A stretch of 64,000 bases of DNA, taken from the NCBI GenBank assembly GCA_964475265.1, contig CAYYVY010000001.1, positions 21,390 through 85,389 of the forward strand, read 5' to 3'. The stretch is from an uncultured Anaerolineaceae bacterium (GTDB lineage: Bacteria > Chloroflexota > Anaerolineae > Anaerolineales > E44-bin32). This document shows, piece by piece, positions 50,884 through 63,998 of the stretch (the stretch's first letter is position 1; each line of letters opens with the position of its first letter). The translations under genes and the position numbers were made by a program. The notes beneath the pieces are model-generated. The model was not told the DNA's origin. It ran no database searches and worked only from the letters and a program-made list of their open reading frames with translations.

Positions 50884-51900
50884 GTGAACTGGCAAGATTC
50901 ATTTAAGGGTGATTCACTCTCCTGGCTGTTGGAAGCCGAATCGCCGGGCGTTCGTTACCTGGCGCTGCGTGATCTGGTGGACGAGCCCGCTGATTCCGCG
51001 GCGTTGAGGTCCGCCCGGGAAGCGGCACACCGCAAAGGTCCCATTGCATCGCTTCTGGCTGAGATGCACGCGGAAGGCTACTGGGTTGAACCGGGACCGG
51101 GCTATCGCCCCAAATATCGCAGCACGGTCTGGGCGCTCATCCTGTTGGCCCAATTGGGTGCAGCGGCAGATCGAGATACGCGTGTCGCCCGGGGGTGTGA
51201 ATACGTCCTCGCCAATACGCTTTCCCCGGGAGGTCGCTTCAGTATCACGGGCGCGCCCTCGGGGACTGTGGATTGCCTGCAGGGCAACATGTGCGCCGCA
51301 CTGGTTGATCTGGGTTGGGAGGACGAACGGCTTGATGCGGCGTTCGAGTGGATGGCGCGCAGCGTGACCGGAGAGGGCGTCGCACCGATGAGTGAGAAGA
51401 AGGCCGAGATACGCTATTACGCCGGAAAATGCGGGCCGGACTTCGTCTGCGGGGCGAACAATAACCTGGCCTGCGCCTGGGGTGCGGTAAAGGTGATGCT
51501 GGCGTTCGCCAAGCTGCCGGCTGAAAAGCGGACGCCGTTGATCAAACGGGCGATCACCCGCGGGGTGGATTTCCTCTTCAGCGTCGATCCGGCCTCGGCG
51601 GAATACCCGCACGGTTATACGGATAAGCCGAGCGGTAACTGGTGGAAGTTTGGTTTCCCCGTGTTTTACGTGACGGACTTGCTGCAGACCGCAGAAGCGC
51701 TCGTGCGGCTGGGTTATGGGGGTGATCCACGTCTGAAGAATACCCTGCATATTATCCGCCAGAAACAGGATGAGCAAGGGCGCTGGGCACTCGAATACGA
51801 TTATGCCGGGAAGACCTGGCTGGATTTCGGTGTCAAGAAAATGCCGAACAAGTGGGTGACGCTGCGGGCACTGCGGGTTCTCAAGCAAACCTGTGATTGA
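50884..51900 (+). CDS. alpha/alpha-toroid (prenyltransferase / squalene-cyclase-repeat-like) protein, unknown function
   Basis: The GTG at 50884 is preceded by GGAGGG with 5-nt spacing. Repeated W/Y-rich helical-hairpin units are visible (EGYWVEP, STVWALILLAQLG, QDEQGRWALEY). The family assignment is from memory only. Confidence 0.4.
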   Translation: MNWQDSFKGDSLSWLLEAESPGVRYLALRDLVDEPADSAALRSAREAAHRKGPIASLLAEMHAEGYWVEPGPGYRPKYRSTVWALILLAQLGAAADRDTRVARGCEYVLANTLSPGGRFSITGAPSGTVDCLQGNMCAALVDLGWEDERLDAAFEWMARSVTGEGVAPMSEKKAEIRYYAGKCGPDFVCGANNNLACAWGAVKVMLAFAKLPAEKRTPLIKRAITRGVDFLFSVDPASAEYPHGYTDKPSGNWWKFGFPVFYVTDLLQTAEALVRLGYGGDPRLKNTLHIIRQKQDEQGRWALEYDYAGKTWLDFGVKKMPNKWVTLRALRVLKQTCD

Positions 51901-51967: not shown

Positions 51968-52045
51968 GCCCCCGAGAATCGAAACGGTAATTGGGAGGCT
52001 CGAACGGGGTTGCCGAGAATGTCACTTCCCCGTCCTACGGATTTG

Positions 52046-54214
52046 ATGAAACAAGTCGTTCAAGACGTTCGCTCCGGCAAGACCAGCGTGACCGAAGTCC
52101 CTGTGCCCGTTCCGGGTCCGGGTACGGCATTGGTGCGTACTGCGGCCTCGCTTGTCTCGGCGGGGACGGAGCGCGCTGTCGTCAAGTTTGCCGGTAAATC
52201 CCTGTTGGGGAAGGCCCGTTCACGACCGGACCTGGTACGTCAGGTGCTGGAAAAAGTACGACGCGAGGGTCTGCTGACGACCATTGAGGCTGTGCAGAAC
52301 CGGCTCGACCAGCCCATGCCGCTGGGGTACTCTTCCGCCGGAACGCTGGTGGCCGTGGGGGACGGTTTACATGGTTTCCGCGTCGGCGATCGTGTGGCGT
52401 GTGCCGGTGGGGGTTACGCCGTGCACGCCGAATTCGCCGTTGTGCCGCAGAACTTGCTGGCGCACCTGCCGGAAGGCGTGGAATTCGAAGAGGGCGCTTT
52501 CGCCACGTTGGGCGCAATCGCCTTGCACGGTTTTCGCCTGGTAGAAGCGCAAATGGGCGAACGTGTGGCGGTCATCGGCCTGGGACTGCTGGGACTGCTT
52601 TCCGTGGGCATCGCCCGCGCCGCCGGATGTTCGGTGTTCGGGATCGATCTCGATCCGGAGCGAGTCGAACGGGCGAAGACATTGGGTGCAGTGGCGGTCA
52701 CCAATCCGAACGCCGAGCAGGCGGCAGCGGCTTTCAGCCAGGGACTGGGCTGCGACGTGGTGATGATCTGCGCCGACACGCAATCCAACGATCCGGTCGA
52801 ACTTGCGGGAACCATCGCGCGCGATCGGGCGAGAGTCGTGGCCGTCGGCGCGGTGGGTATGGACATCCCCCGACGCACGTACTATCAAAAGGAGCTCCAA
52901 TTCATCGTTTCGCGGTCCTACGGCCCGGGGCGTTACGATCCGCTGTACGAAGAAGCGGGAATCGATTACCCGCCGGGTTACGTACGCTGGACCGAAGGGC
53001 GTAATCTGGGCGCTTTTCTCGAGACGTTGGCGCGAGGATCATTCGACGTTGCTTCGCTGATCAGCCACCGCTTTGCCATCGCAGACGCTGCTGAGGCGTA
53101 CGATTTGATCACGGGCAACACCAAGGAATCGTTCCTGGGTGTCCTGCTCACGTATCCACAGGAAGAAGCCATTGACGCGGGCGCGCGTCTCGTCGAGCTG
53201 GATAAGCGCAAGATTTCCACCTCGTCTCGAATACATTTGGGTGCGATCGGTGCGGGAAATTTCGCTACGGCGGTACTTTTTCCCGCCTTGCGGAAAGTAA
53301 AAGGGGTCGAGCGGATTGGTTTGGTCACAGCGAGCGGGTCGAAGAGTGCGCAGGTGGGACAGCGTTTCGGCTTCCGCTACGCTTCCACGGATGTAAACGA
53401 GGTCCTCAAGGACAAAAACATCAACACCATCGCCGTGCTCACCCGGCATCATCTGCATGCTTCGCAGGTGGTTGCGGCACTGAACGCCGGCAAGCACGTC
53501 TTCTGTGAAAAGCCGCTGGCTCTACGGCGCGACGAATTGGGCGAGATCATGCAGGCGCTGGAACAAAGCGATCGCATGCTGACCGTGGGATTCAACCGCC
53601 GCTTTTCACCATTCGCCGTTTGGTTGAAGACCTTCTTCGATGCGGCAGACGAGCCGTTGGCGATGCATTATCGCATCAACGCCGGTCAGCTGCCGCTGGA
53701 CCATTGGCTGCACGACGCCGAACAAGGCGGCGGCCGCATCATCGGCGAGGCTTGTCATTTCATCGATTTTCTTACCTTCCTCAATGGGTCACCTCCCGTG
53801 CAAATTTCCGCAGTCGGTATGCCGGACGATCAGCGCTATCGCGAGGACAACGTGAGCATTACCCTCGAGTTCGCCGACGGGTCGATCGGGACGGTGAGTT
53901 ATTTGGCCGCCGGCGACCGTGCCTTTCCCAAGGAGCGCGTCGAGATTTTCGGCGGTGGACGGGTGGCTGTGCTCGACGATTTCCGGCGAGTCGAAACCAT
54001 GCACAATGGACGGCGTAAAGTGCGTCGTGCCTGGCTGCGCCAGGACAAAGGGCATCGCCAGGAATGGGAGGCTTTTTCGAAAGCGGTCGCCGAAGGCGGT
54101 CCGCCACCCATCCCATACGAGCATTTGGTCGGCGTCAGCTTAACTTCGATTGCTGCCGTGGAGGCGCTTCGCTCGCTCACAACCGTGAAGATCGAATCCA
54201 TACCAAGATCATAA
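52046..54214 (+). CDS. bi-domain oxidoreductase (Zn-ADH/GroES-like N-domain + Gfo/Idh/MocA C-domain)
   Basis: MKQVVQDVRSGKTSVTEVPVP is a typical family N-terminus. Rossmann motif 1 is VIGLGLLGLL. The second half contains LGAIGAGNFA and FCEKPLAL (Gfo/Idh/MocA EKP motif). Alternative starts lie at 52010 (TTG) and 52019 (ATG). Confidence 0.75.
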   Translation: MKQVVQDVRSGKTSVTEVPVPVPGPGTALVRTAASLVSAGTERAVVKFAGKSLLGKARSRPDLVRQVLEKVRREGLLTTIEAVQNRLDQPMPLGYSSAGTLVAVGDGLHGFRVGDRVACAGGGYAVHAEFAVVPQNLLAHLPEGVEFEEGAFATLGAIALHGFRLVEAQMGERVAVIGLGLLGLLSVGIARAAGCSVFGIDLDPERVERAKTLGAVAVTNPNAEQAAAAFSQGLGCDVVMICADTQSNDPVELAGTIARDRARVVAVGAVGMDIPRRTYYQKELQFIVSRSYGPGRYDPLYEEAGIDYPPGYVRWTEGRNLGAFLETLARGSFDVASLISHRFAIADAAEAYDLITGNTKESFLGVLLTYPQEEAIDAGARLVELDKRKISTSSRIHLGAIGAGNFATAVLFPALRKVKGVERIGLVTASGSKSAQVGQRFGFRYASTDVNEVLKDKNINTIAVLTRHHLHASQVVAALNAGKHVFCEKPLALRRDELGEIMQALEQSDRMLTVGFNRRFSPFAVWLKTFFDAADEPLAMHYRINAGQLPLDHWLHDAEQGGGRIIGEACHFIDFLTFLNGSPPVQISAVGMPDDQRYREDNVSITLEFADGSIGTVSYLAAGDRAFPKERVEIFGGGRVAVLDDFRRVETMHNGRRKVRRAWLRQDKGHRQEWEAFSKAVAEGGPPPIPYEHLVGVSLTSIAAVEALRSLTTVKIESIPRS

Positions 54215-56460
54215 TGGCATCGTTGAGGACCATCCTGCGCGCGGTAGGTGAACTCGGTCCCAGGCCCACGCTGCTTTATGGGCTGTATCGAGTTCTCTTG
54301 CGTTCGGGTTGGTTTCGCTGGCGAACTCCACGACAAACCTGGCAGGACGTTCCGTTCACTTCCTGGCTTCGGCCGGCCATACCCAGCGATCCCGAGCAAT
54401 ATCTTCAATATCGTAAACATATCAATACGCGTTTCTTTCTCCATCCCGGCGATGAATTTGTCGGCGCATTAAAGCAGGTGATCGGTCAGAACCAGAGTAC
54501 GGCAATCTCACAAGCCGATGCGATTCTCGGGGGCAATTTCCGATTGTTCGGAGTGGATGGTAATGATTTGGGTTTCCCGCCCGATTGGGGCAGGTTTTGT
54601 CCAACACCGGGAGATTCGGCAGGCGTTTCTGTCCCCCTGAACCGCCATTGGACGACCTACGACGAAAACGACTTTGCGCAAGACGTCAAACTGCTCTGGG
54701 AACCGGCGCGATTTGGATGGGTGTTTCCATTGGCCAGGGCGTACATTTTGACGCAAGATACACGCTACGCCGAAGCCATTTGGATCTTGATTGATTCGTG
54801 GCGGGACATCAACCCACCCAACTCGGGACCGCACTGGTCTTCGGCGCAAGAGGCGGCGATTCGTTTGCTGGCGGTGATTTTTGCCCTGCACATAACCTTT
54901 GAATATATTGCCAAATCACCACAGAAGCTGTGTGAAGTCGCGAGCTTGATCGCAGCGCATGCAGCGCGAATTCCTCCGACGTTGATTTATGCCCGGGCGC
55001 AAGGCAACAATCATCTTTTGGTCGAGGCGGTGGCGCTGTACAGTGTGGGCTTGTTGTTCCCGGAATTCCGCAAGGCGAAAACGTGGAAGCGGCTGGGCCG
55101 GCGTTGGCTGGAACGATCGCTGGCGGAGCAAATCTTCGCCGATGGCGGCTACGTTCAGCACTCGACGAACTACCATCGCCTGGCGCTCCAGGCGGCTCTG
55201 TGGGCGGTTCGCCTTGCCGAAGTAAACGACGAAGCATTACCTCCTGATTTGCTGGCAGCGTTGCAGAAAGCTGCCCACTGGCTTTACAGTATGATCGATA
55301 GGAAAAGCGGACACGTACCCAACCTTGGTCCCAACGACGGTGCGCTGATCTTTCCACTGAGCACCCGTCCGTTTGAAGATCACCGCCCGACGTGCCAGGC
55401 GGCTTCGTTCGCTTTTCTGGAACGCAAACCATTCCCGGTTGGACCCTGGGATGAAGAGCTTATCTGGTTTGGTCTGCAATCCGGCGTTTCCCGGGACGAC
55501 ACCCGTCGTGGAAGTGGGCCGCCTATCGAGATTGATCGAGGCGGCGAGAAAGCTATGCAGCCAATTGGATTGGGCGATCATTTTCCCGCAAGCGGCTTTA
55601 CCATCCTGCGCGGAGAAAACTCGTGGGGAATGCTGCGCTGCGCCCGTTTCAGAACTCGACCGGGTCACTCGGATCAGCTGCACTTTGATTTGTGGTGGCA
55701 GGGGTACAACGTTGCCTGTGATCCTGGCACGTACCTGTATAATGGGAAACCACCCTGGGACAATCCTTGGATCGGGGCTGCGTTTCACAACACCGTCTTG
55801 ATCGACGACCTGGAGCCCATGCGCCGAGCGGGCAGGTTTTTATGGGTCGATTGGGCGCAGGGTGCGTTCATCGGCCGTTGGAAGTCACAGAACGGTGCCA
55901 TCGAGGTAGTCATTGGGGAGCACCACGGTTATCGGAGAATCGGGCTTGTGCACAGGCGGACGATTGCGAGGATTGGAGACGCACATTGGTTGATCGTAGA
56001 CGATGTTATTGGGTCGGGATTGCATGGCGTGTCGATCGGCTGGACGATGCCAGATTTCCCTTGGAAGCTGAATGCGCACGGGACATCGCTTGACCTCGGC
56101 GAATCTGAAATCGAGGTGAGTTTGGAAGGGCAGGTAGGAGACACGGGGCTTTATCGGGCTGGGGCCCTGGTCGCCGGAAATGGGGTATGTGCGAATCCAA
56201 ACCTGCACGGCTGGCGTTCGATGGGGTATGCGGTTAAAGAGCCTGCGCTTCGTTTGGTGAAACGATTCGAAGCGTCCATTCCGGTACGTCATTGCACTTG
56301 GTGGTCCTTCGACGCTGCGCCTCGTGACGGAGTGGAGATCGTCTGGAATGAGCCCGATCGGGATACACTGTCTTTTTCCCGTATTGGCTGGCAAGGACAG
56401 CGTTTGGAATTGAACGATGCACATCTTGTTGATTCATCAAGTTTTCGCCGCGCTGGGTGA
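54214..56460 (+). CDS. heparinase II/III-family (alginate-lyase-fold) protein
   Basis: The ATG at 54214 overlaps the previous TAA (TAATG). Motifs include GNNHLLVEAVALYSVGLLFPEF and GHSDQLHFDLWWQG, resembling the heparinase II/III C-terminal region. The size is about 748 aa. Confidence 0.65.
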   Translation: MASLRTILRAVGELGPRPTLLYGLYRVLLRSGWFRWRTPRQTWQDVPFTSWLRPAIPSDPEQYLQYRKHINTRFFLHPGDEFVGALKQVIGQNQSTAISQADAILGGNFRLFGVDGNDLGFPPDWGRFCPTPGDSAGVSVPLNRHWTTYDENDFAQDVKLLWEPARFGWVFPLARAYILTQDTRYAEAIWILIDSWRDINPPNSGPHWSSAQEAAIRLLAVIFALHITFEYIAKSPQKLCEVASLIAAHAARIPPTLIYARAQGNNHLLVEAVALYSVGLLFPEFRKAKTWKRLGRRWLERSLAEQIFADGGYVQHSTNYHRLALQAALWAVRLAEVNDEALPPDLLAALQKAAHWLYSMIDRKSGHVPNLGPNDGALIFPLSTRPFEDHRPTCQAASFAFLERKPFPVGPWDEELIWFGLQSGVSRDDTRRGSGPPIEIDRGGEKAMQPIGLGDHFPASGFTILRGENSWGMLRCARFRTRPGHSDQLHFDLWWQGYNVACDPGTYLYNGKPPWDNPWIGAAFHNTVLIDDLEPMRRAGRFLWVDWAQGAFIGRWKSQNGAIEVVIGEHHGYRRIGLVHRRTIARIGDAHWLIVDDVIGSGLHGVSIGWTMPDFPWKLNAHGTSLDLGESEIEVSLEGQVGDTGLYRAGALVAGNGVCANPNLHGWRSMGYAVKEPALRLVKRFEASIPVRHCTWWSFDAAPRDGVEIVWNEPDRDTLSFSRIGWQGQRLELNDAHLVDSSSFRRAG

Positions 56461-57732: not shown

Positions 57733-58368
57733 ATGAGCGTACCGCTGGTCATTCCTGGAATGCCGTTACGAAAGCGGCTGTTCGATTTGGTCCTGACCAT
57801 TCCCGGGTTGATCGTGATAAGTCCGCTGCTTGCGGTTACAGCTGTGCTCGTTCGAATCCGTTTGGGAACACCGATACTCTTCCGGCAAATGCGGCCGGGA
57901 TACCATGCAGTGCCGTTCGAAATCTATAAATTCCGAACGATGAACGAGGCGTGCGACTCAGAAGGCAATCTACTTCCGGATGAAGCTCGACTCACAAAAT
58001 TGGGACGTTTCCTGCGCTCATCCAGCATCGACGAACTGCCGGAGTTGTTCAACGTTTTACGCGGCGAGATGAGTCTCGTGGGCCCGCGGCCGTTATTATT
58101 GCAGTATCTCGAGCGCTACTCCCCTGAACAAGCGCGGCGCCACGAGGTGCTGCCCGGGATTACCGGATGGGCACAGATCGGGGGGCGCAACGTGATCACC
58201 TGGAATGAAAAATTTGAACGCGATGTTTGGTATGTCGACCATTGGTCGCTGCATCTTGACCTGAAAATCCTGTTCTTGAATTTTTGGAAAGTAATCAAGC
58301 GGGAGGGGATCAGCCAGCTAGGACACGCTACAGCGGAGGAATTCAAGGGGAACCGGGACGGTGAATGA
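57733..58368 (+). CDS. monotopic phosphoglycosyl transferase (bacterial sugar transferase, PglC/WbaP-C-like)
   Basis: RLFDLVLTIPGLIVISPLL re-entrant helix, PILFRQMRPG, FEIYKFRTM, DELPELFNVLRGEMSLVGPRP, PGITGWAQI. Confidence 0.9.
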   Translation: MSVPLVIPGMPLRKRLFDLVLTIPGLIVISPLLAVTAVLVRIRLGTPILFRQMRPGYHAVPFEIYKFRTMNEACDSEGNLLPDEARLTKLGRFLRSSSIDELPELFNVLRGEMSLVGPRPLLLQYLERYSPEQARRHEVLPGITGWAQIGGRNVITWNEKFERDVWYVDHWSLHLDLKILFLNFWKVIKREGISQLGHATAEEFKGNRDGE

Positions 58369-58547
58369 AACGCTGTACCAATAGCAATGTTCTTGCAATG
58401 CATGTGGATTGGCAGTTAGGAAGGCCTGATTGGGGGTTTGTCGAATAGGGCGTACAAAAGTTTGACTTGTAGGGTACACTTAGAGAGGATAAGATAGGGC
58501 CGTGTGCGAACGTTGACGGCACAACCATACTGCAGAGGAGGCGGACA

Positions 58548-58739
58548 GTGAAGGAACCACTTGAGTTTTATGATATCAAGAGTAAATCAAAGTTCACGAG
58601 CGCAAATTGGAGGATCGAATCCAAGGAATCAAAGGGGAAAACGCGGTATTTCGCCGTTGCGAGCGCTCCTGAAGGAGATCACGAGGCCTGGCGAATCGTA
58701 GCCGCTGATTTCGCAAAGAAACATATGCAATCCTGGTAA
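58548..58739 (+). CDS. small basic beta-rich protein (63 aa), unknown function
   Basis: The GTG at 58548 lies 6 nt after GAGGAGG. A strong terminator follows 24 nt downstream. Product: MKEPLEFYDIKSKSKFTSANWRIESKESKGKTRYFAVASAPEGDHEAWRIVAADFAKKHMQSW. Confidence 0.5.
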   Translation: MKEPLEFYDIKSKSKFTSANWRIESKESKGKTRYFAVASAPEGDHEAWRIVAADFAKKHMQSW

Positions 58740-58762
58740 TATTATAGCCAATCGGAAATTTG

Positions 58763-58797
58763 AAGCCGCCCTTTTCAACGGGCGGCTTATTGTTTTT
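58763..58797 (+). terminator. rho-independent terminator
   Basis: AAGCCGCCC (58763-58771) / GGGCGGCTT (58780-58788), followed by ATTGTTTTT. Confidence 0.8.
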
Positions 58798-58812
58798 GCA
58801 ATTTCGGGCTTG

Positions 58813-58821
58813 TGTTATCAT
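58813..58821 (+). promoter_or_regulatory. possible extended -10 promoter for the E1/lipoyl-acyltransferase cassette
   Basis: TGtTATCAT at 58813-58821, just after the terminator and 57 nt before the ATG at 58878. Confidence 0.3.
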
Positions 58822-58877
58822 GTCCCTGTTTCCCGATTTGCCCGGTGAGGGGAAGTGTCGGAAAGAAGTGCATTCGG

Positions 58878-59807
58878 ATGAAGAAGTCTTCCCAAAATGA
58901 CGCAGATCTCTACCGTAAGATGCTGCGCATCCGTCTTTTTGAAGAACGATTGTTGGAAATGTTCCCCAGCGGCCAGATATATGGCACGACTCACACCTAT
59001 ATCGGTCAGGAAGCTAATGCCGTGGGGGTTTTAGCGACGTCGCAGGCGGGCGATGTCGTCGTCAGCAACCATCGCTGTCACGGTCATTTCTTAGCGTACG
59101 GCGGTTCGATGCAGGCATTGGCTGCAGAATTACTTGGCCGCGAGACGGGGATTTGTGGGGGCCGTGGCGGCAGCCAGCACATAAAGTGGGAGAATTTCTT
59201 TGCCAACGGCATTCTCGGTGGAACGGTGCCGATCGCAGTGGGCATGGCATTTGCAGAAGCCGCAAAGAAGGGCAATGCGCTCGTATACACCTTCATCGGT
59301 GACGGAACGCTCGGTGAAGGTGTCGTCTACGAAGCGATCAACATGGCTTCACTCTGGCGTCTGCCGCTGTTTTTTGTCGTCGAAAACAATCGCTACGCGC
59401 AGAGCACCCCCGTGGAACTGAATCTGGCGGGCGATATATGCGCCCGGTTTGAGGCGTTTGGTATTTCGACGTTGGCGCATGAAGCAGACGACGTGCTTGA
59501 AATTATGCGACTCGCTCAAGATATTTCTAACTCGATTCGCGCTGGTGAAGGCCCGCATGCGTTGATTCTGCACACCTATCGATTCGCACCACATTCAAAA
59601 GGGGACGACACACGTGATCCCGACGAAATCGCACGGTATCGGGCGCGCGATCCGTTAAAGGCGGCTGCGGCGCGGGTGCAGCAGGCAGTGAAAGGCGAGA
59701 TTGAGAAATCGGTGGCGGCCGAAGTAGACGAGGCTTATGCGTGTGCCGAAAACGATCCCTTTCCCGCTGCGGAAACCCTTACGCCACCGTTGGATGAGCT
59801 CGCATGA
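58878..59807 (+). CDS. TPP-dependent 2-oxoacid (pyruvate/acetoin-type) dehydrogenase E1 component, alpha subunit
   Basis: LYRKMLRIRLFEERL, HRCHGH, and TPP motif GDGTLGEGVVYEAINMASLWRLPLFFVVENN (GDG-x26-NN). Confidence 0.85.
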   Translation: MKKSSQNDADLYRKMLRIRLFEERLLEMFPSGQIYGTTHTYIGQEANAVGVLATSQAGDVVVSNHRCHGHFLAYGGSMQALAAELLGRETGICGGRGGSQHIKWENFFANGILGGTVPIAVGMAFAEAAKKGNALVYTFIGDGTLGEGVVYEAINMASLWRLPLFFVVENNRYAQSTPVELNLAGDICARFEAFGISTLAHEADDVLEIMRLAQDISNSIRAGEGPHALILHTYRFAPHSKGDDTRDPDEIARYRARDPLKAAAARVQQAVKGEIEKSVAAEVDEAYACAENDPFPAAETLTPPLDELA

Positions 59808-60802
59808 CGACCGTGCGGGAAGCCCTGAACGAATCGCTTCAAGCTTGTCTGCGGGAGTCCCCCGAAGTTTATTTTCTCGGAGAGGACATCCTCGATCCCT
59901 ATGGCGGTGCGTTTAAATTAGCAGCGGGTTTATCAACGCAATTTCCGGACCGCGTGATCACGACGCCGGTGTCGGAAGCGGGCATCGTGGGTGTAGGTAT
60001 CGGTATGGCGTTGCGCGGTCTGCGTCCGGTGGTTGAAATCATGTTCGGGGATTTTGTCACCCTGGCTGCCGATCAATTGATCAATCACGCAGCGAAAATC
60101 CGTTGGATGAGTGGAGATGCAGCCCGGATTCCTTTGGTCGTGCGCACTCCCATGGGAGGCGGCCGTGGCTATGGGCCGACACACAGCCAGACGTTGGAAA
60201 AGCATTTTCTAGGGGCGCCTGGCTTGCGTGTGGTTGCCGTATCCGATTTGGATGATCCCGGCGCGTTGCTGCATCATGCTGTATTCGATGACAATGATCC
60301 GGTGCTGCTGGTGGAACATAAACTGCTCTATCCCAGCACCATCTTGGCCCTGGATAACGCGGAGGCGTACGATATCGAGCGGCAAGGAAATGGATATCCC
60401 GGATATTTCATAAAGTTACGCGGTTCACCGGAAACGCGTCTGACGATGGTGGCCTATGGCTACATGGCGACTCTGGCGCGAGATGCCATGCGCAGCCTGG
60501 CCATAGAGAAGGAAATCTTTTCTGAGCTGATTGTGCCCACCCAGCTCAGCCCATTCAAACTGGATTTCCTGTGCCAGCGTGCATCCCAAACCCGTCATGT
60601 GCTGGTCATCGAAGAAGGAACGCAGACGATGGGATGGGGTGCGGAAGTGTCGGCAGGCTTGCATGAAGCGGTATCCTCGAATTTACGGGTGGGCCGCGTC
60701 GCTGCGTTGGACATGCCCATTCCTGCCGCAGCCCGGATTGAGGCGCAGGTATTGCCCTCGGTTGAGCGGATCAAGGACATGGCCCTGGAGTTGGCTGTTT
60801 GA
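59804..60802 (+). CDS. 2-oxoacid dehydrogenase E1 component, beta subunit
   Basis: ATGA overlap with the alpha subunit. FLGEDILDPYGGAFKLAAGLSTQFPDRVITTPVSEAGIVGVGIGMALRGLRPVVEIMFGDF is a typical E1-beta N-domain. A transketolase-C-like C-domain follows. Confidence 0.85.
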   Translation: MTTVREALNESLQACLRESPEVYFLGEDILDPYGGAFKLAAGLSTQFPDRVITTPVSEAGIVGVGIGMALRGLRPVVEIMFGDFVTLAADQLINHAAKIRWMSGDAARIPLVVRTPMGGGRGYGPTHSQTLEKHFLGAPGLRVVAVSDLDDPGALLHHAVFDDNDPVLLVEHKLLYPSTILALDNAEAYDIERQGNGYPGYFIKLRGSPETRLTMVAYGYMATLARDAMRSLAIEKEIFSELIVPTQLSPFKLDFLCQRASQTRHVLVIEEGTQTMGWGAEVSAGLHEAVSSNLRVGRVAALDMPIPAAARIEAQVLPSVERIKDMALELAV

Positions 60803-60862
60803 TGGATCGACCGAAGAATGCGTACGTCCTCTCTATTTTGATTATTATTGGAGATGCGGGTG

Positions 60863-61966
60863 ATGTCGACTGCATTTGAAGTGCGTGTGCCGCTGTTGAA
60901 CCCCAATGAACGTGAGGCGCAGCTCGCGGCACTGCATGTTTCAGAGGGTAAGTCGATCTCGACGGGCGATTTACTTTGCACCCTGGAGACCACGAAATCG
61001 ACCGCTGATGTGGTTGCCGAGCGGGATGGTTACGTCGTGGGTATCCGTGCGGCCGTCGGCGATCGAGTTGTGGCGGGAGAAGTATTTTGCTGGCTGGCTG
61101 ATGATCTGGAGTGGGAAGCACCTGCTGCGGAAGAAGCGAAATCGAAGCAGGCAGCGGCTGGTCTTGATCTACACATCACCGAGCCGGCGATGGCGTTGGC
61201 CGAGAAATTGGGCGTAGATTTGGACGCCCTGCCGGGCGATGCCTGGATTACCGAGGACGTCGTACGCCGTTATGCGCAGCGTGAAACGCCGCTTGCGATC
61301 CCGAATCTGGAAATTGATTCGAAGTCGATCGTCGTATACGGCGGCGGTGGCCACGCCAAAGCGTTGATCGATTTGATTCGCAAGCTTGGGATGTTCAACA
61401 TCGTGGGAATTTTGGACGATGGTCTTGCAGCAGAAAATCAAGTCATGGGCGTCCCGGTTTTGGGTGGTGCTGAATTGCTCGAAACGCTGAAGGAGCGTGG
61501 GCTTGAGCGCGCCGTAAACGCAGTCGGCGGTATCGGCGACATGCAAAGCCGCGTGAGGGTGTTCGAAAGGCTGCGCCAGGCTGGTTTTGCTTGCCCTGCA
61601 CTGGTTCACCCCACGGCGTTTGTCGAAGAAAGTGCGCAGCTTGCGGAAGGCGTTCAGGTATTTCCACACGCCTACATTGGGAGCGACGTAGAAATCGGCT
61701 TCGGCGTGATCGTAAACACTGCCGCGGTGGTCTCGCACGATTGTCGCCTCGCGGATTACGCCAACGTTGCGCCGGGTGCGTTGTTGGCCGGGGGTGTGGA
61801 AATTGGAGCGCGGGCGTTGATCGGGATGGGCACCACACTCAATTTAAACGTCACGATCGGTGCCGGTGCACGGGTGGGAAACAGTGCGGTGGTCAAGGCC
61901 GATGTGCCTGCGAACGGCATTGTGCGTGCGGGCGCGGTTTGGCCGGAACCGAAACACAATGGATGA
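60863..61966 (+). CDS. lipoyl domain + E3/peripheral-subunit-binding domain fused to a PglD/NeuD-family hexapeptide sugar acyltransferase (no E2 catalytic core)
   Basis: The lipoyl-like motif is GDLLCTLETTKSTADVVAERDGYVVGIRAAVGDRVVAGEVFCWL, with Lys45 at 60995-60997. The linker is A/E/K-rich. The PSBD-like segment is EPAMALAEKLGVDLDALPGDAWITEDVVRRY. IVVYGGGGHAKALIDLIRKLG... then begins the hexapeptide repeats, with VVSHDCRLADY. GGAG lies 9 nt upstream of the ATG at 60863 (other in-frame starts: 60848 TTG, 60854 ATG). Confidence 0.8.
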   Translation: MSTAFEVRVPLLNPNEREAQLAALHVSEGKSISTGDLLCTLETTKSTADVVAERDGYVVGIRAAVGDRVVAGEVFCWLADDLEWEAPAAEEAKSKQAAAGLDLHITEPAMALAEKLGVDLDALPGDAWITEDVVRRYAQRETPLAIPNLEIDSKSIVVYGGGGHAKALIDLIRKLGMFNIVGILDDGLAAENQVMGVPVLGGAELLETLKERGLERAVNAVGGIGDMQSRVRVFERLRQAGFACPALVHPTAFVEESAQLAEGVQVFPHAYIGSDVEIGFGVIVNTAAVVSHDCRLADYANVAPGALLAGGVEIGARALIGMGTTLNLNVTIGAGARVGNSAVVKADVPANGIVRAGAVWPEPKHNG

Positions 61967-61989
61967 TACCCTCATCGAAGTATCTCTGA

Positions 61990-63198
61990 ATGGAGGTTGT
62001 CGGATTGACTGAGGAGCGCGGATCTACGTTTTCGATCGGCATGTCTGCGCCGGACCTGACAGACGCAGAACGCGAAGCGGTGCTGGAGGTACTGCGTACG
62101 CCGCGTTTGAGCATGGGGCTGCAGATCGAAGCGTTCGAAGCGGCTGTGGCGCAATACGTAGGGGCTAAGCACGCCGTCGCCGTCAGTTCTGGAACCGGGG
62201 GATTGCATTTGTGCGTACGCGCCGCAGGCATAACGGACGGCGATTGGGTGATCACCACGTCGTTTTCGTTCATATCTTCGGCCAACGTGATTCTTTACGA
62301 GCGTGCAACACCGGTGTTCGTCGACGTCGATCCACGCACGGGCAACATCGATCCGGCGCAAGTTGCACGCGCTGCGCAGGATCTTTTACGCGGCGGATCG
62401 TCGGCCGCGCACTGGCTGCCGAGGAAGGGCTCGCAGAGCGACGGGCGTCTGAAAGCTATCCTGCCCGTGGATGTTTTCGGTCAGCCGGCTGATTACGATG
62501 CCCTCAACGTAGTCGCCAAGGAGAACGACCTGGTAATCATCGAGGATTCGTGTGAGGCCCTCGGTGCTTGTTACAAGGGTCGTCCGGCGGGGATGTTGGG
62601 GGATGCCGGCGTTTTCGCCTTCTATCCCAACAAACAAATCACAACGGGCGAAGGCGGACTGATCGTTACGCAGGACGAGGCATGGGCGGGTACTTGCCGT
62701 GCACTGCGCAACCAGGGACGCGCCCCGGGTGACACGTGGCTCGAGCATACACACCTGGGCTATAACTACCGTTTGGATGAAATGAGCGCAGCTTTGGGAT
62801 GCGCGCAAATGGATCGGTTGACGCAGTTATTGGAAAAACGCAGCCGTGTGGCTGACTGGTACGGAGAACGCCTGGCAGAAAATTCCGGCGTTGAAGCGCC
62901 GAATCTGAGTCCGAACACCACGCGAGTCAGCTGGTTTGTCTATGTGGTGCGTTTGGCCGCTGACGTCGTGCGGGACAGTCTCGTCGAGCGGTTGGCTGCG
63001 GCAGGTATTCCTTCCCGCCCATATTTCGTCCCCATCCATACACAGCCGTTTTTTGTGGAACGCTTCGATTATCGCGTTGGCGATTTTCCGGTGACGGAGG
63101 ACCTGGGGAGGCGTAGTCTGGCCTTGCCGTTTTCATCGATCATGACGGAGAGGGAAGTTGATCATGTCTGCCGGTCACTGGCCGGGAGCATGAAATAA
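61990..63198 (+). CDS. DegT/DnrJ/EryC1/StrS-family sugar aminotransferase
   Basis: FEAAVAQYVGAKHAVAVSSGTGGLHL, IEDSCEALGA, and PLP-lysine context FAFYPNKQITTGEGG. The start is uncertain (61990 or 62041). Confidence 0.85.
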   Translation: MEVVGLTEERGSTFSIGMSAPDLTDAEREAVLEVLRTPRLSMGLQIEAFEAAVAQYVGAKHAVAVSSGTGGLHLCVRAAGITDGDWVITTSFSFISSANVILYERATPVFVDVDPRTGNIDPAQVARAAQDLLRGGSSAAHWLPRKGSQSDGRLKAILPVDVFGQPADYDALNVVAKENDLVIIEDSCEALGACYKGRPAGMLGDAGVFAFYPNKQITTGEGGLIVTQDEAWAGTCRALRNQGRAPGDTWLEHTHLGYNYRLDEMSAALGCAQMDRLTQLLEKRSRVADWYGERLAENSGVEAPNLSPNTTRVSWFVYVVRLAADVVRDSLVERLAAAGIPSRPYFVPIHTQPFFVERFDYRVGDFPVTEDLGRRSLALPFSSIMTEREVDHVCRSLAGSMK

Positions 63199-63241: not shown

Positions 63242-63276
63242 CAGCCCCCTGATCAGTAAGCCGGATCAGGGGGCTG
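63242..63276. terminator. strong hairpin between convergent genes (probable terminator)
   Basis: CAGCCCCCTGATC (63242-63254) / GATCAGGGGGCTG (63264-63276) is a perfect 13-bp stem. The T-run on the plus side is weak (GATTTCTTT). Confidence 0.55.
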
Positions 63277-63299: not shown

Positions 63300-63998
63300 T
63301 TATCGAACCTGACGCCAATTGACCAGGATCAGGTTCTCGCTGCAAGAGTCGCTTGTATCGAAGTACACTTGTTCGGAAATCGGGTTGCCGTCCCCGTCTT
63401 CCAACTGGATCCACAACGTGCCGCTGCTGGCGATCGGCTCTGTAGCCACGTTGAAGAGGTAACCCCCGGGTCCGGCGTCCGGCTCACTTCCGGTTAGTGC
63501 ATAGAGATCGATCTTGCCGACACCCTCGAGTTCCCCGCTAAGGTGCACGGTTAATTCGAGAATCGGTTGACTGCTTTCATCGAATACCTGGCCGAAAACG
63601 CCCAAATAGTCGCATGCCTGTCCGTTGATGAAATTCTCGATTGGCGCCGGGCTGCCGACCTGCAGGACGAAAGGATATTCCGCCTCTTCTTCCGGAGTTT
63701 CCGTGATGGTTGCTGTGGCGGACTCCGGGGCTTCGGTGGGCGAAGGGGTCGTTTCCAGTTCGGTCGTACCGTCCTCAGTGGGAGTCGCGGTCCAGGCTGG
63801 TGGGAGCGTTCTGGCCGGTGTCTGCGTTGGCGTCGGGGATCCCAACGTGGGCGGGATGGTTGGTGGGGGAAAGGGATTGATCGAAAGGTAGGGGTTGACA
63901 AAAACGGCGACCAGCGCAACGCCCACTACCACCGTCGTCAATAGCACAATAACGGTGAGGATATTGAAAACGATGCGCCTGCAGCCCGAGAAGCTCAT
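63300..63998 (-). CDS. membrane-anchored extracytoplasmic protein with Thr/Pro-rich linker, unknown function
   Basis: N-terminal TM helix IVFNILTVIVLLTTVVVGVALVAVFV. A P/T-rich segment follows (PPPTIPPTLGSPTPTQTPARTLPPAWTATPTEDG), then a C-terminal globular domain of about 120 aa. Confidence 0.5.
   Translation of the reverse strand: MSFSGCRRIVFNILTVIVLLTTVVVGVALVAVFVNPYLSINPFPPPTIPPTLGSPTPTQTPARTLPPAWTATPTEDGTTELETTPSPTEAPESATATITETPEEEAEYPFVLQVGSPAPIENFINGQACDYLGVFGQVFDESSQPILELTVHLSGELEGVGKIDLYALTGSEPDAGPGGYLFNVATEPIASSGTLWIQLEDGDGNPISEQVYFDTSDSCSENLILVNWRQVR

Follow-up and report, generated by a model that had tools for sequence, protein, structure and literature searches.

A candidate lipoyl-dependent module for N-acylation of amino sugars in a glycan locus of an uncultured Anaerolineaceae bacterium

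A stretch of 64,000 nucleotides from an uncultured Anaerolineaceae bacterium (GenBank assembly GCA_964475265.1, contig CAYYVY010000001.1, positions 21,390 to 85,389 of the forward strand), referred to here as the window, carries a cassette of four co-directional genes on the + strand (58878-63198; all positions are those of the window), which is bracketed by two strong hairpins. The cassette encodes the alpha and beta subunits of a thiamine diphosphate (ThDP)-dependent 2-oxo acid dehydrogenase component (E1), a fusion protein in which a lipoyl domain precedes a sugar N-acyltransferase domain, and a DegT-family aminotransferase. Genomic and structural-prediction evidence suggests that the cassette is probably a dedicated N-acylation module for a nucleoside diphosphate (NDP)-linked 4-amino-4,6-dideoxy sugar, in which the lipoyl arm would replace coenzyme A (CoA) as the acyl carrier. 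A dedicated module turning a 2-oxo acid into the N-acyl group of an amino sugar had been proposed in an earlier reading made from the letters of the window (hereafter the sequence-only reading); this proposal gains support from conserved synteny, from a separate E1 clade and from the related loci L085/L086 and L098 described below. The genes of the cassette and the domains of the fusion protein are as follows.

58878..59807, + strand: E1 alpha, ThDP-dependent, 309 aa (Pfam E1_dh, 184 bits)
59804..60802, + strand: E1 beta, 332 aa (Transket_pyr, 112 bits; Transketolase_C, 56.6 bits)
60863..61966, + strand: fusion protein, lipoyl / PSBD-like / PglD-type acyltransferase, 367 aa (Biotin_lipoyl, PglD_N, Hexapep); PSBD, peripheral subunit-binding domain
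60863..61102, + strand: lipoyl domain of the fusion, residues 1-80 (Biotin_lipoyl, 47.7 bits, residues 6-75)
61175..61285, + strand: PSBD-like two-helix linker of the fusion, residues 105-141 (AlphaFold2 helices, AceF profile alignment)
61325..61945, + strand: PglD/PerB-type (class I) sugar N-acyltransferase domain of the fusion, residues 155-361 (TIGR03570, 185.6 bits)
61990..63198, + strand: DegT-family NDP-sugar aminotransferase, 402 aa (DegT_DnrJ_EryC1, 368.6 bits)

The fusion protein was modelled with AlphaFold2 on the basis of 109 homologs (mean predicted local distance difference test score, pLDDT, 89). In the model, residues 1-80 form a lipoyl barrel, residues 91-100 a disordered tether, and residues 107-116 and 131-141 one helix each, while the PglD fold spans residues 155-361. 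When compared by Foldseek, the acyltransferase part matches the GDP-perosamine N-acetyltransferase PerB of Caulobacter with a template modelling (TM) score of 0.92, a root-mean-square deviation equal to 1.2 and 38% identity, and the TM scores range from 0.84 to 0.92 across PerB, the acetyltransferase domain of Neisseria PglB, C. jejuni PglD and A. baumannii VioB. The score of this domain against TIGR03570, the NeuD/PglB/VioB model, lies over the cut-off of 160.8 bits, and its sequence match to PerB (4EA7) amounts to 117 bits. No match to the chloramphenicol acetyltransferase (CAT)-like 2-oxoacid_dh core of the dihydrolipoyl acyltransferases (E2) was obtained for the fusion, and the beta-helix PglD domain stands in its place.

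The N-terminal part of the model resembles the lipoyl domain L2 of human E2 (Foldseek TM 0.82), and its profile, searched against the PDB, scored E. coli E2 at 100 bits (about 36 bits for each of its three lipoyl domains), human E2 at 73 bits and biotin carriers at 43 bits at most. These matches, together with the motif E-T/S-x-K, favour a lipoyl over a biotinyl domain, and the predicted lipoyl-lysine is K45 (codon 60995-60997) in the motif LETTKS. The sequence-only reading had regarded an E3-binding domain (E3, dihydrolipoyl dehydrogenase) as retained. A profile of the N-terminal 155 residues can be aligned without a break to E. coli AceF across its third lipoyl domain and its PSBD, and AlphaFold2 predicts two helices at this position with pLDDT 70-85; however, Pfam E3_binding matches only at E = 0.13 and the GTGxxGRI loop is absent, so that the element is termed PSBD-like here. 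In the pyruvate dehydrogenase (PDH) of Geobacillus the PSBD binds E1 as well as E3, and PDB entry 1W85, found among the matches of E1 alpha and E1 beta, is an E1 entry of this family. Since the Geobacillus domain has both partners, the PSBD-like element could equally tether E1 (through E1 beta) and/or E3.

Residue conservation was followed across the 109 fusion proteins, which fall into a Chloroflexota and a Bacteroidota clade with 26-35% mutual identity. E42 and K45 of the lipoyl motif are invariant (109/109). Likewise, N285, H292 and G310 vary little or not at all, and position 293, directly after the His, is Asp or Glu in all 109 proteins. H292 (codon 61736-61738), N285 and G310 align to VioB H135, N128 and G153, which act as catalytic base, conserved Asn and oxyanion Gly, respectively, and G160, G163, D185 and R230, again invariant or nearly so, correspond to G8, G11, D32 and R72 of the VioB sugar site (PMC9271549). 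The CoA-phosphate ligands of VioB are not retained. R170 is replaced by Asn in the Chloroflexota clade and by Tyr, Phe or Leu in the Bacteroidota clade, the equivalent of R189 is variable, and the K206 tail as well as the C-terminal Gly-x-Pro turn are missing from 42 of the 49 Bacteroidota-clade proteins, the turn being altered to AGxxWP in the Chloroflexota clade. This pattern points to a relaxed constraint on the nucleotide end of CoA, though it is not proof of it.

A word-indexed search for the fusion family returned 2122 proteins at E <= 0.001. Among the 150 best cluster representatives (50% identity), at least 126 keep the lipoyl domain N-terminal to the acyltransferase, and a scan of one genome per species revealed relatives in at least 275 species. 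Gene neighbours were scored by tblastn with the window proteins in the best 80 of these 275 species loci, almost all from Chloroflexota and mainly from Anaerolineae. E1 beta is located directly upstream of the fusion gene in 74/75 testable loci and E1 alpha upstream of it in 64/66, while a DegT gene follows within 2.5 kb downstream in 51/74 and a phosphoglycosyl transferase (PGT) homolog precedes the trio of E1 alpha, E1 beta and fusion in 46/63. By its own criterion, the sequence-only reading would have been refuted if E1ab were never found beside the fusion in homologous loci. This outcome did not occur: the homologous loci keep them side by side, as do the distant loci examined. In a Bellilinea locus (L062) the trio stands alone, flanked by plsY-like and crcB-like genes; the invariant unit is therefore the trio E1 alpha, E1 beta and fusion.

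The distant Bacteroidota clade has members in Dokdonia, Polaribacter, Chitinophagaceae, Bacteroidales and Armatimonadota. In this clade, E1 alpha and E1 beta are fused into one protein of 640-685 aa, and the stop codon of its gene overlaps the start of the fusion gene; overlapping start and stop codons are present in L003, L084-L087 and L098. L085 and L086 display the order E1ab, fusion, Bac_transf, DegT and a PglF-like dehydratase (Polysacc_synt_2), which amounts to a full bacillosamine-type set. In L098 (2661-13509) the trio is embedded in a complete legionaminic-acid-type cluster at the position of LegH, with LegB (479.7 bits, cut-off 475), LegC (490 bits, cut-off 420) and a CBS-nucleotidyltransferase on one side, and a NeuB-type synthase, a NeuC-type epimerase, a CMP-transferase and WbuZ/HisH on the other. 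No separate LegH-type or other acetyltransferase is present in the L098 cluster. A further locus, L099, consists of E1 alpha, E1 beta, a fusion with a long linker and a PGT. Because the trio occurs in bacillosamine-type as well as legionaminic-acid contexts, it appears to plug into differing amino-sugar pathways, always at the N-acylation step.

Three observations on individual loci are given here for completeness. E1 beta of L098 was called as two open reading frames (ORFs) of 127 and 201 aa, reflecting either a split gene or a frameshift. In an uncultured Dokdonia (L084, 1-11110), the fused E1ab gene and the lipoyl-PglD gene have nonribosomal peptide synthetase (NRPS) genes (AMP-binding, PP-binding, Condensation) and a TonB-dependent receptor immediately ahead of them and Wzi behind them, a context that hints at a role of the module outside glycans or in connection with siderophores. 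Moreover, a metagenome-assembled genome labelled Methanosarcinales archaeon (L021, JAIWHF010000009.1) harbors the series PGT, 63-aa ORF, E1 alpha, E1 beta, fusion and DegT with 54-71% identity to the Anaerolineales locus; it is most likely a binning contaminant and not an archaeal instance.

Within the window, the gene layout given by the sequence-only reading was found again in all its details. The ThDP motif GDG-x26-NN of E1 alpha reads GDGTLGEGVVYEAINMASLWRLPLFFVVENN in translation, the ATG of E1 beta (59804) overlaps the TGA of E1 alpha as ATGA, which couples the two subunits in translation, and the ATG codons of the fusion (60863) and of DegT (61990) follow at distances of 60 and 23 nt past the respective upstream gene. 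The start of E1 alpha had to be revised: it had been set at GTG 58812, and ATG 58878, which gives 309 aa and agrees with the public gene call, is the most likely start. As to DegT, its top PDB match is a perosamine synthase (252 bits, as compared to 158 bits for WbpE), and the curated models for the LegC family (290 bits) and PseC (284 bits) are each matched under cut-off; the protein is probably of the 4-aminotransferase type.

The top curated match of E1 alpha is TIGR03182 (PDH_E1_alph_y), which it reaches with 268.7 bits, under the cut-off of 393.85. Its closest solved relative is human PDH E1 alpha (144 bits), with E1 alpha of the branched-chain 2-oxo acid dehydrogenase (BCKDH) type at 60-92 bits; for E1 beta, the PDB relatives score 122-154 bits. 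Among annotated plasmid-borne relatives, the AcoA-like proteins of Thermus are closest (41-45%), followed by generic E1/PdhA proteins (36-40%), and BCKDH ranks far lower. In a neighbour-joining tree (Kimura distances, 200 bootstraps), calculated with a small reference set, the E1 alphas encoded beside the fusion in Chloroflexota and in Bacteroidota group together with a support of 200/200 bootstraps, apart from the AcoA-like, PdhA, acetoin-operon and BCKDH references. The clade retains the ThDP motif and the loop His (PHSKGDD). Judged from these comparisons, the E1 belongs to a dedicated glycan-linked clade rather than to a housekeeping PDH, its nearest relatives being AcoA/PDH-type E1s. The sequence-only reading had looked to such a placement for a hint at the substrate; it makes pyruvate no more than a default guess.

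On this basis, we propose the following sequence of steps. DegT would aminate a 4-keto-6-deoxy NDP-sugar, the product of a dehydratase encoded elsewhere in the genome. An E1 alpha2-beta2 heterotetramer would decarboxylate a small 2-oxo acid on ThDP, with pyruvate as the default guess, and then reductively acylate the lipoyl-lysine K45 of the fusion, while the PSBD-like linker would keep E1, perhaps along with an E3, anchored to the trimeric fusion protein. The acyl-dihydrolipoyl arm would reach into the pantetheine groove that the PglD/PerB-type beta-helix domain of the same protein provides, where His292 would deprotonate the 4-amine of the sugar and the amine would take the acyl group; an E3 acting in trans would subsequently re-oxidise the dihydrolipoyl group. 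For pyruvate, the overall reaction would convert oxo acid, amino sugar and NAD+ to CO2, N-acyl sugar and NADH. The adjacent PglC-type transferase, the likely user of the N-acylated amino sugar, would prime a glycan with it, and in other genomes the product would feed legionaminic-acid synthesis. In a bolder version of this scheme, E1 would consume the oxo-acid co-product of DegT, and one amino acid would give both the nitrogen and the acyl group. The gene and domain anatomy, the residue conservation, the gene pairing across phyla and the E1 clade rest on observation; lipoylation and all chemical steps of the scheme are inferred.

The window had been read as devoid of genes for E3, lipoate ligase and lipoyl synthase. 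In line with this, tblastn with E. coli Lpd, LplA, LipA, LipB and AceF yielded no match in the 64-kb window at E <= 1e-3, and no match covering half the protein at E <= 1e-8 within 10 kb of about 90 related loci, where for AceF the part homologous to the fusion would be the lipoyl/PSBD region only. Six catabolic E1 operons were considered for contrast. Four of them, from Phaeobacter, Enterococcus, Leisingera and C. difficile, contain a canonical E2 together with lpdA, and a canonical E2 is likewise present in the E1 operon of a Desulfotalea plasmid, whereas none of the about 90 fusion loci has a canonical E2 or lpdA within 10 kb.

Several of the observations weigh against a lipoyl-dependent N-acylation module. 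The active site of E1 reads GT(T/V)HT(Y/C) as compared to GF(V/C)HLY of PDH/AcoA and GGSQH as compared to GGSMH, and its loops are shorter; because of these differences pyruvate is only a default guess, and the substrate may be other than pyruvate. DegT is non-adjacent in 23/74 loci. E3 and lipoylation genes were found neither in the window nor in the 10 kb around the related loci, and many Anaerolineae are anaerobes. A PglF-like 4,6-dehydratase is missing from the window, which offers just two generic short-chain dehydrogenases/reductases 25-40 kb off; among the related loci, such an enzyme is encoded in L085/L086 (Polysacc_synt_2) and in L098 (LegB). Furthermore, the Chloroflexota clade keeps an invariant K345 beside the position of VioB R189 as well as its invariant AGxxWP turn, and some Bacteroidota-clade members retain GNPA, so that CoA binding is compatible with the sequence. 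Finally, acetyl-CoA is universal, and a route from pyruvate to an acetyl group is therefore without obvious advantage.

In a first rival explanation, CoA stays the carrier. The trio could then represent an unconventional pyruvate or acetoin (2-oxo acid) dehydrogenase, with the beta-helix as an E2 core that passes the acyl group to CoA, or it could generate acyl-CoA locally for use in the manner of PglD. The succession of lipoyl domain, PSBD and trimeric acyltransferase is the domain order of an E2, both cores being trimers, the Bellilinea trio stands alone among unrelated genes, and K345, AGxxWP and the occasional GNPA could hold CoA. Nevertheless, we consider this rather unlikely, given that the NDP-sugar lobe (PglD_N) is conserved in both clades along with G160, G163, D185 and R230, that the trio has DegT, PGT or nonulosonic-acid genes at its sides in most loci and in several phyla, that the CoA-phosphate ligands equivalent to VioB R170 and K206 are lost, and that no locus has a co-located E3 within 10 kb, as opposed to lpdA in 4/6 catabolic E1 operons.

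Alternatively, the acyltransferase might use acetyl-CoA, with E1 and the lipoyl domain in an accessory role: they might remove the 2-oxo acid co-product of DegT and thereby pull its unfavourable equilibrium, or serve as a redox or pyruvate sensor or as a tether that gates glycan synthesis. The catalytic machinery is indeed the same as in the CoA-dependent PerB and VioB, DegT is the usual neighbour and the active site of E1 is altered. However, the lipoyl domain is covalently attached, has an invariant lysine and comes with a tether, features that are the hallmark of substrates being channelled to the catalytic domain in the same protein. Moreover, the trio is retained without adjacent DegT (23/74 loci; L062), and the C-terminal CoA-contact elements are lost from most Bacteroidota-clade proteins. 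All of this makes an accessory role decidedly unlikely in our view. We give hardly any credence to an incidental adjacency, in which E1ab would be the E1 of a housekeeping PDH or acetoin dehydrogenase and the N-terminus of the fusion a biotinyl or inert barrel. Although the top curated match of E1 alpha is PDH_E1_alph_y and its top annotated relatives are AcoA-like, the score against TIGR03182 stays under the cut-off and the E1 clade is separate in 200/200 bootstraps. Moreover, synteny already contradicts this explanation, with a pairing in 74/75 and 64/66 loci that extends across phyla and with start/stop overlaps in L003, L084-L087 and L098, and both the E-T/S-x-K motif and the PDB profile bits favour a lipoyl over a biotinyl domain.

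The proposed lipoyl-dependent module appears to be built from known parts, namely a genuine class I sugar N-acetyltransferase domain and genuine E1 and lipoyl parts of 2-oxo acid dehydrogenases. With the class I enzymes (PglD of C. jejuni, PerB of C. crescentus, the Neisseria PglB domain, VioB and WeeI of A. baumannii, EpsM of B. subtilis, and LegH), the fusion has in common the bilobal fold of an NDP-sugar lobe and a left-handed beta-helix trimer, the catalytic His/Asn/Gly, and the partners DegT, PglC-type PGT and nonulosonic-acid genes. Unlike these enzymes, it possesses about 150 extra N-terminal residues, comprising the lipoyl domain, a flexible tether and the PSBD-like element, a dedicated E1 is encoded next to it, and the CoA-phosphate contacts are lost or altered. 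None of 212 PglD-like homologs encoded on sequenced plasmids spans the lipoyl part, and the plasmids yielded no cultured carrier. The pathway logic and the neighbourhood are those of the PglC/PglD/PglE (EpsL/EpsM/EpsN) trio and of the LegB/LegC/LegH steps, with the module at the position of PglD or LegH; in contrast to these systems, the module would have a built-in acyl donor system, and its acyl group may differ from acetyl.

The 2-oxo acid dehydrogenase complexes with a heterotetrameric E1 (Gram-positive and mitochondrial PDH, BCKDH, AcoABC) share with the cassette the E1 alpha and beta subunits and the ThDP motif, the E2-like order of lipoyl domain, linker, PSBD-like element and trimeric acyltransferase, and presumably the reductive acylation of lipoamide. 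They differ in that a sugar N-acyltransferase replaces the CAT-like 2-oxoacid_dh core in the fusion, so that the acceptor would be an amino sugar and not CoA, in that the cassette operon is without E3, and in that its E1, with substitutions in the active site, forms a clade apart. In function, QncN/QncL/QncM and SclQ1-4 come nearest as a precedent: an E1-like ThDP enzyme dedicated to this task cooperates with a lipoyl/E2 protein to produce a glycolyl unit, which is handed to an acyl carrier protein (ACP), a non-CoA acceptor (PMC6335953). QncN/L/M, unlike the cassette, employ a canonical E2 acyltransferase domain, an ACP as acceptor and a ketose phosphate as donor, and serve an NRPS and not a glycan; the four cassette proteins contain neither a 2-oxoacid_dh nor a PP-binding domain. 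Beside this precedent, we note an operon on a Desulfotalea psychrophila plasmid (L094, NC_006139, 37566-43895) that comprises acsA, pdhA, E1 beta, E2, a phosphopantetheine-binding protein and a lipoate-protein ligase, and that looks like a QncN/L/M-type supply of acyl groups from E1/E2 to ACP on a conjugative plasmid.

In public databases the fusion proteins are annotated as 'EpsM' or 'NeuD/PglB/VioB family acetyltransferase', and full-text literature searches returned no description of a lipoyl-PglD fusion. An apparent match, PMC4875605, uses 'lipoylation' for fatty acylation. In addition, E1 genes in the Legionella lipopolysaccharide locus were not borne out by the main text of PMC3766260.

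The cassette is surrounded by the following elements.

57733..58368, + strand: small PglC-type PGT, 211 aa (Pfam Bac_transf, 208.6 bits)
58548..58739, + strand: conserved 63-aa ORF between the PGT and E1 alpha (in 21/64 testable loci)
58763..58797, + strand: terminator-like hairpin with a 9-bp GC-rich stem (58763-58788) and a T-tract to 58797
58813..58821, + strand: candidate extended -10 box TGtTATCAT, read from the sequence
63242..63276, no strand assigned: perfect 13-bp hairpin between convergent genes (folding energy and z-scores)

Both hairpins had been pointed out by the sequence-only reading, and each of them outfolds shuffled sequence. The upstream terminator has a folding energy of -20.5 kcal/mol (z = -4.1), and 0/200 shuffles fold as well; the closing hairpin reaches -27.5 kcal/mol, with z = -5.4 on the + strand and -5.6 on the - strand, and is likely a bidirectional terminator. 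As regards the extended -10, the box proposed earlier is present and, together with the terminator, unchanged in three related loci (L004-L006) despite diverged surrounding intergenic sequence, but a simple sigma-70 scan called no promoter at this position. The block GCTTGTGTTATCATGTC is constant in four loci whose flanks differ. The conserved terminator and box would fit a separate promoter of the cassette in this clade. The description of the cassette as self-contained holds for this clade, with its own terminator and promoter-like box, but not for other clades in which the PGT abuts E1 alpha; in L003, the gap between the two genes is 47 nt. As to a riboswitch or other RNA element upstream of E1, Rfam returned no RNA element for the whole window at gathering thresholds or for 58300-58950 at E <= 1.

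The 63-aa ORF, which is missing from the sequence-only account, is located between the PGT and the upstream terminator, and owing to this position the terminator probably ends the transcript of the ORF. The gene has its own Shine-Dalgarno sequence and is followed by the strong terminator; its product is basic and was modelled by AlphaFold2 as a five-stranded sheet with a C-terminal helix (pLDDT 91). Family, sequence and fold searches with it gave no match. Among the Chloroflexota loci, its carriers are Anaerolineales only, and it may stand outside the module.

The cassette and the PGT are part of a glycan locus (43.8-63.2 kb) that further encodes WecC-like and WecB proteins, GT4 glycosyltransferases, an ADH/GFO fusion oxidoreductase and a heparinase II/III-like protein. 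About 20 related loci share the block from 52010 to 56460 (+ strand) upstream of the PGT; it contains the ADH_zinc_N-GFO/IDH/MocA fusion oxidoreductase (734 aa), the heparinase II/III-like protein and a GT4, and keto-sugar formation and uronate epimerase- or lyase-like chemistry are candidate roles for it. The GFO-type oxidoreductase, WecB and WecC located upstream also prompted a 3-amino (WbpB/E/D-like) reading of the pathway. It was rejected as the primary reading because both DegT and the acyltransferase resemble 4-amino enzymes most, as seen from perosamine synthase over WbpE (252 vs 158 bits) and from PerB over the 3-N-acetyltransferase WlbB (TM 0.92 vs 0.23); in addition, the oxidoreductase block occurs in only part of the family. 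Two further ORFs were recorded: one of 338 aa within the glycan locus (50884-51900, + strand) is without Pfam or NCBIfam match, and one convergent to the cassette at the end of the window (63300-63998, - strand) has an N-terminal third made up of a hydrophobic stretch and then a Pro/Thr-rich low-complexity segment, its only Pfam match being a weak sub-threshold one to Med13_C.

Lipoic acid is generally held to be needed by just a few enzyme systems, which all belong to central metabolism. Known lipoate-dependent systems are PDH, 2-oxoglutarate dehydrogenase, BCKDH, acetoin dehydrogenase and the H protein of glycine cleavage. Sugar N-acetyltransferases are generally held to use acyl-CoA. We lean, on balance, towards the view that the fusion defines a further lipoate-dependent class, an 'E2' with a sugar N-acyltransferase core, in which the acyl group would travel from ThDP via the lipoyl group to an amino sugar with no CoA thioester, and which may add non-acetyl N-acyl groups to surface glycans of Anaerolineae and Bacteroidota and to N7 of legionaminic acids. 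A non-acetyl group is possible since the E1 forms a distinct clade with a more polar active site.

Taken together, the proposed module, if it operates in this way, would give lipoate a new biological role and would constitute a CoA-independent route to N-acyl amino sugars. It would likewise account for the presence of the trio in hundreds of uncultured Chloroflexota and in Bacteroidota, with a relative in at least 275 species and the fusion kept in at least 126 of the 50%-identity clusters. The proposal makes a testable prediction on the N-acyl chemistry of the envelopes of the carriers and of some legionaminic acids, and the trio would represent a compact three-protein system for the N-acylation of nucleotide sugars from cheap oxo acids.

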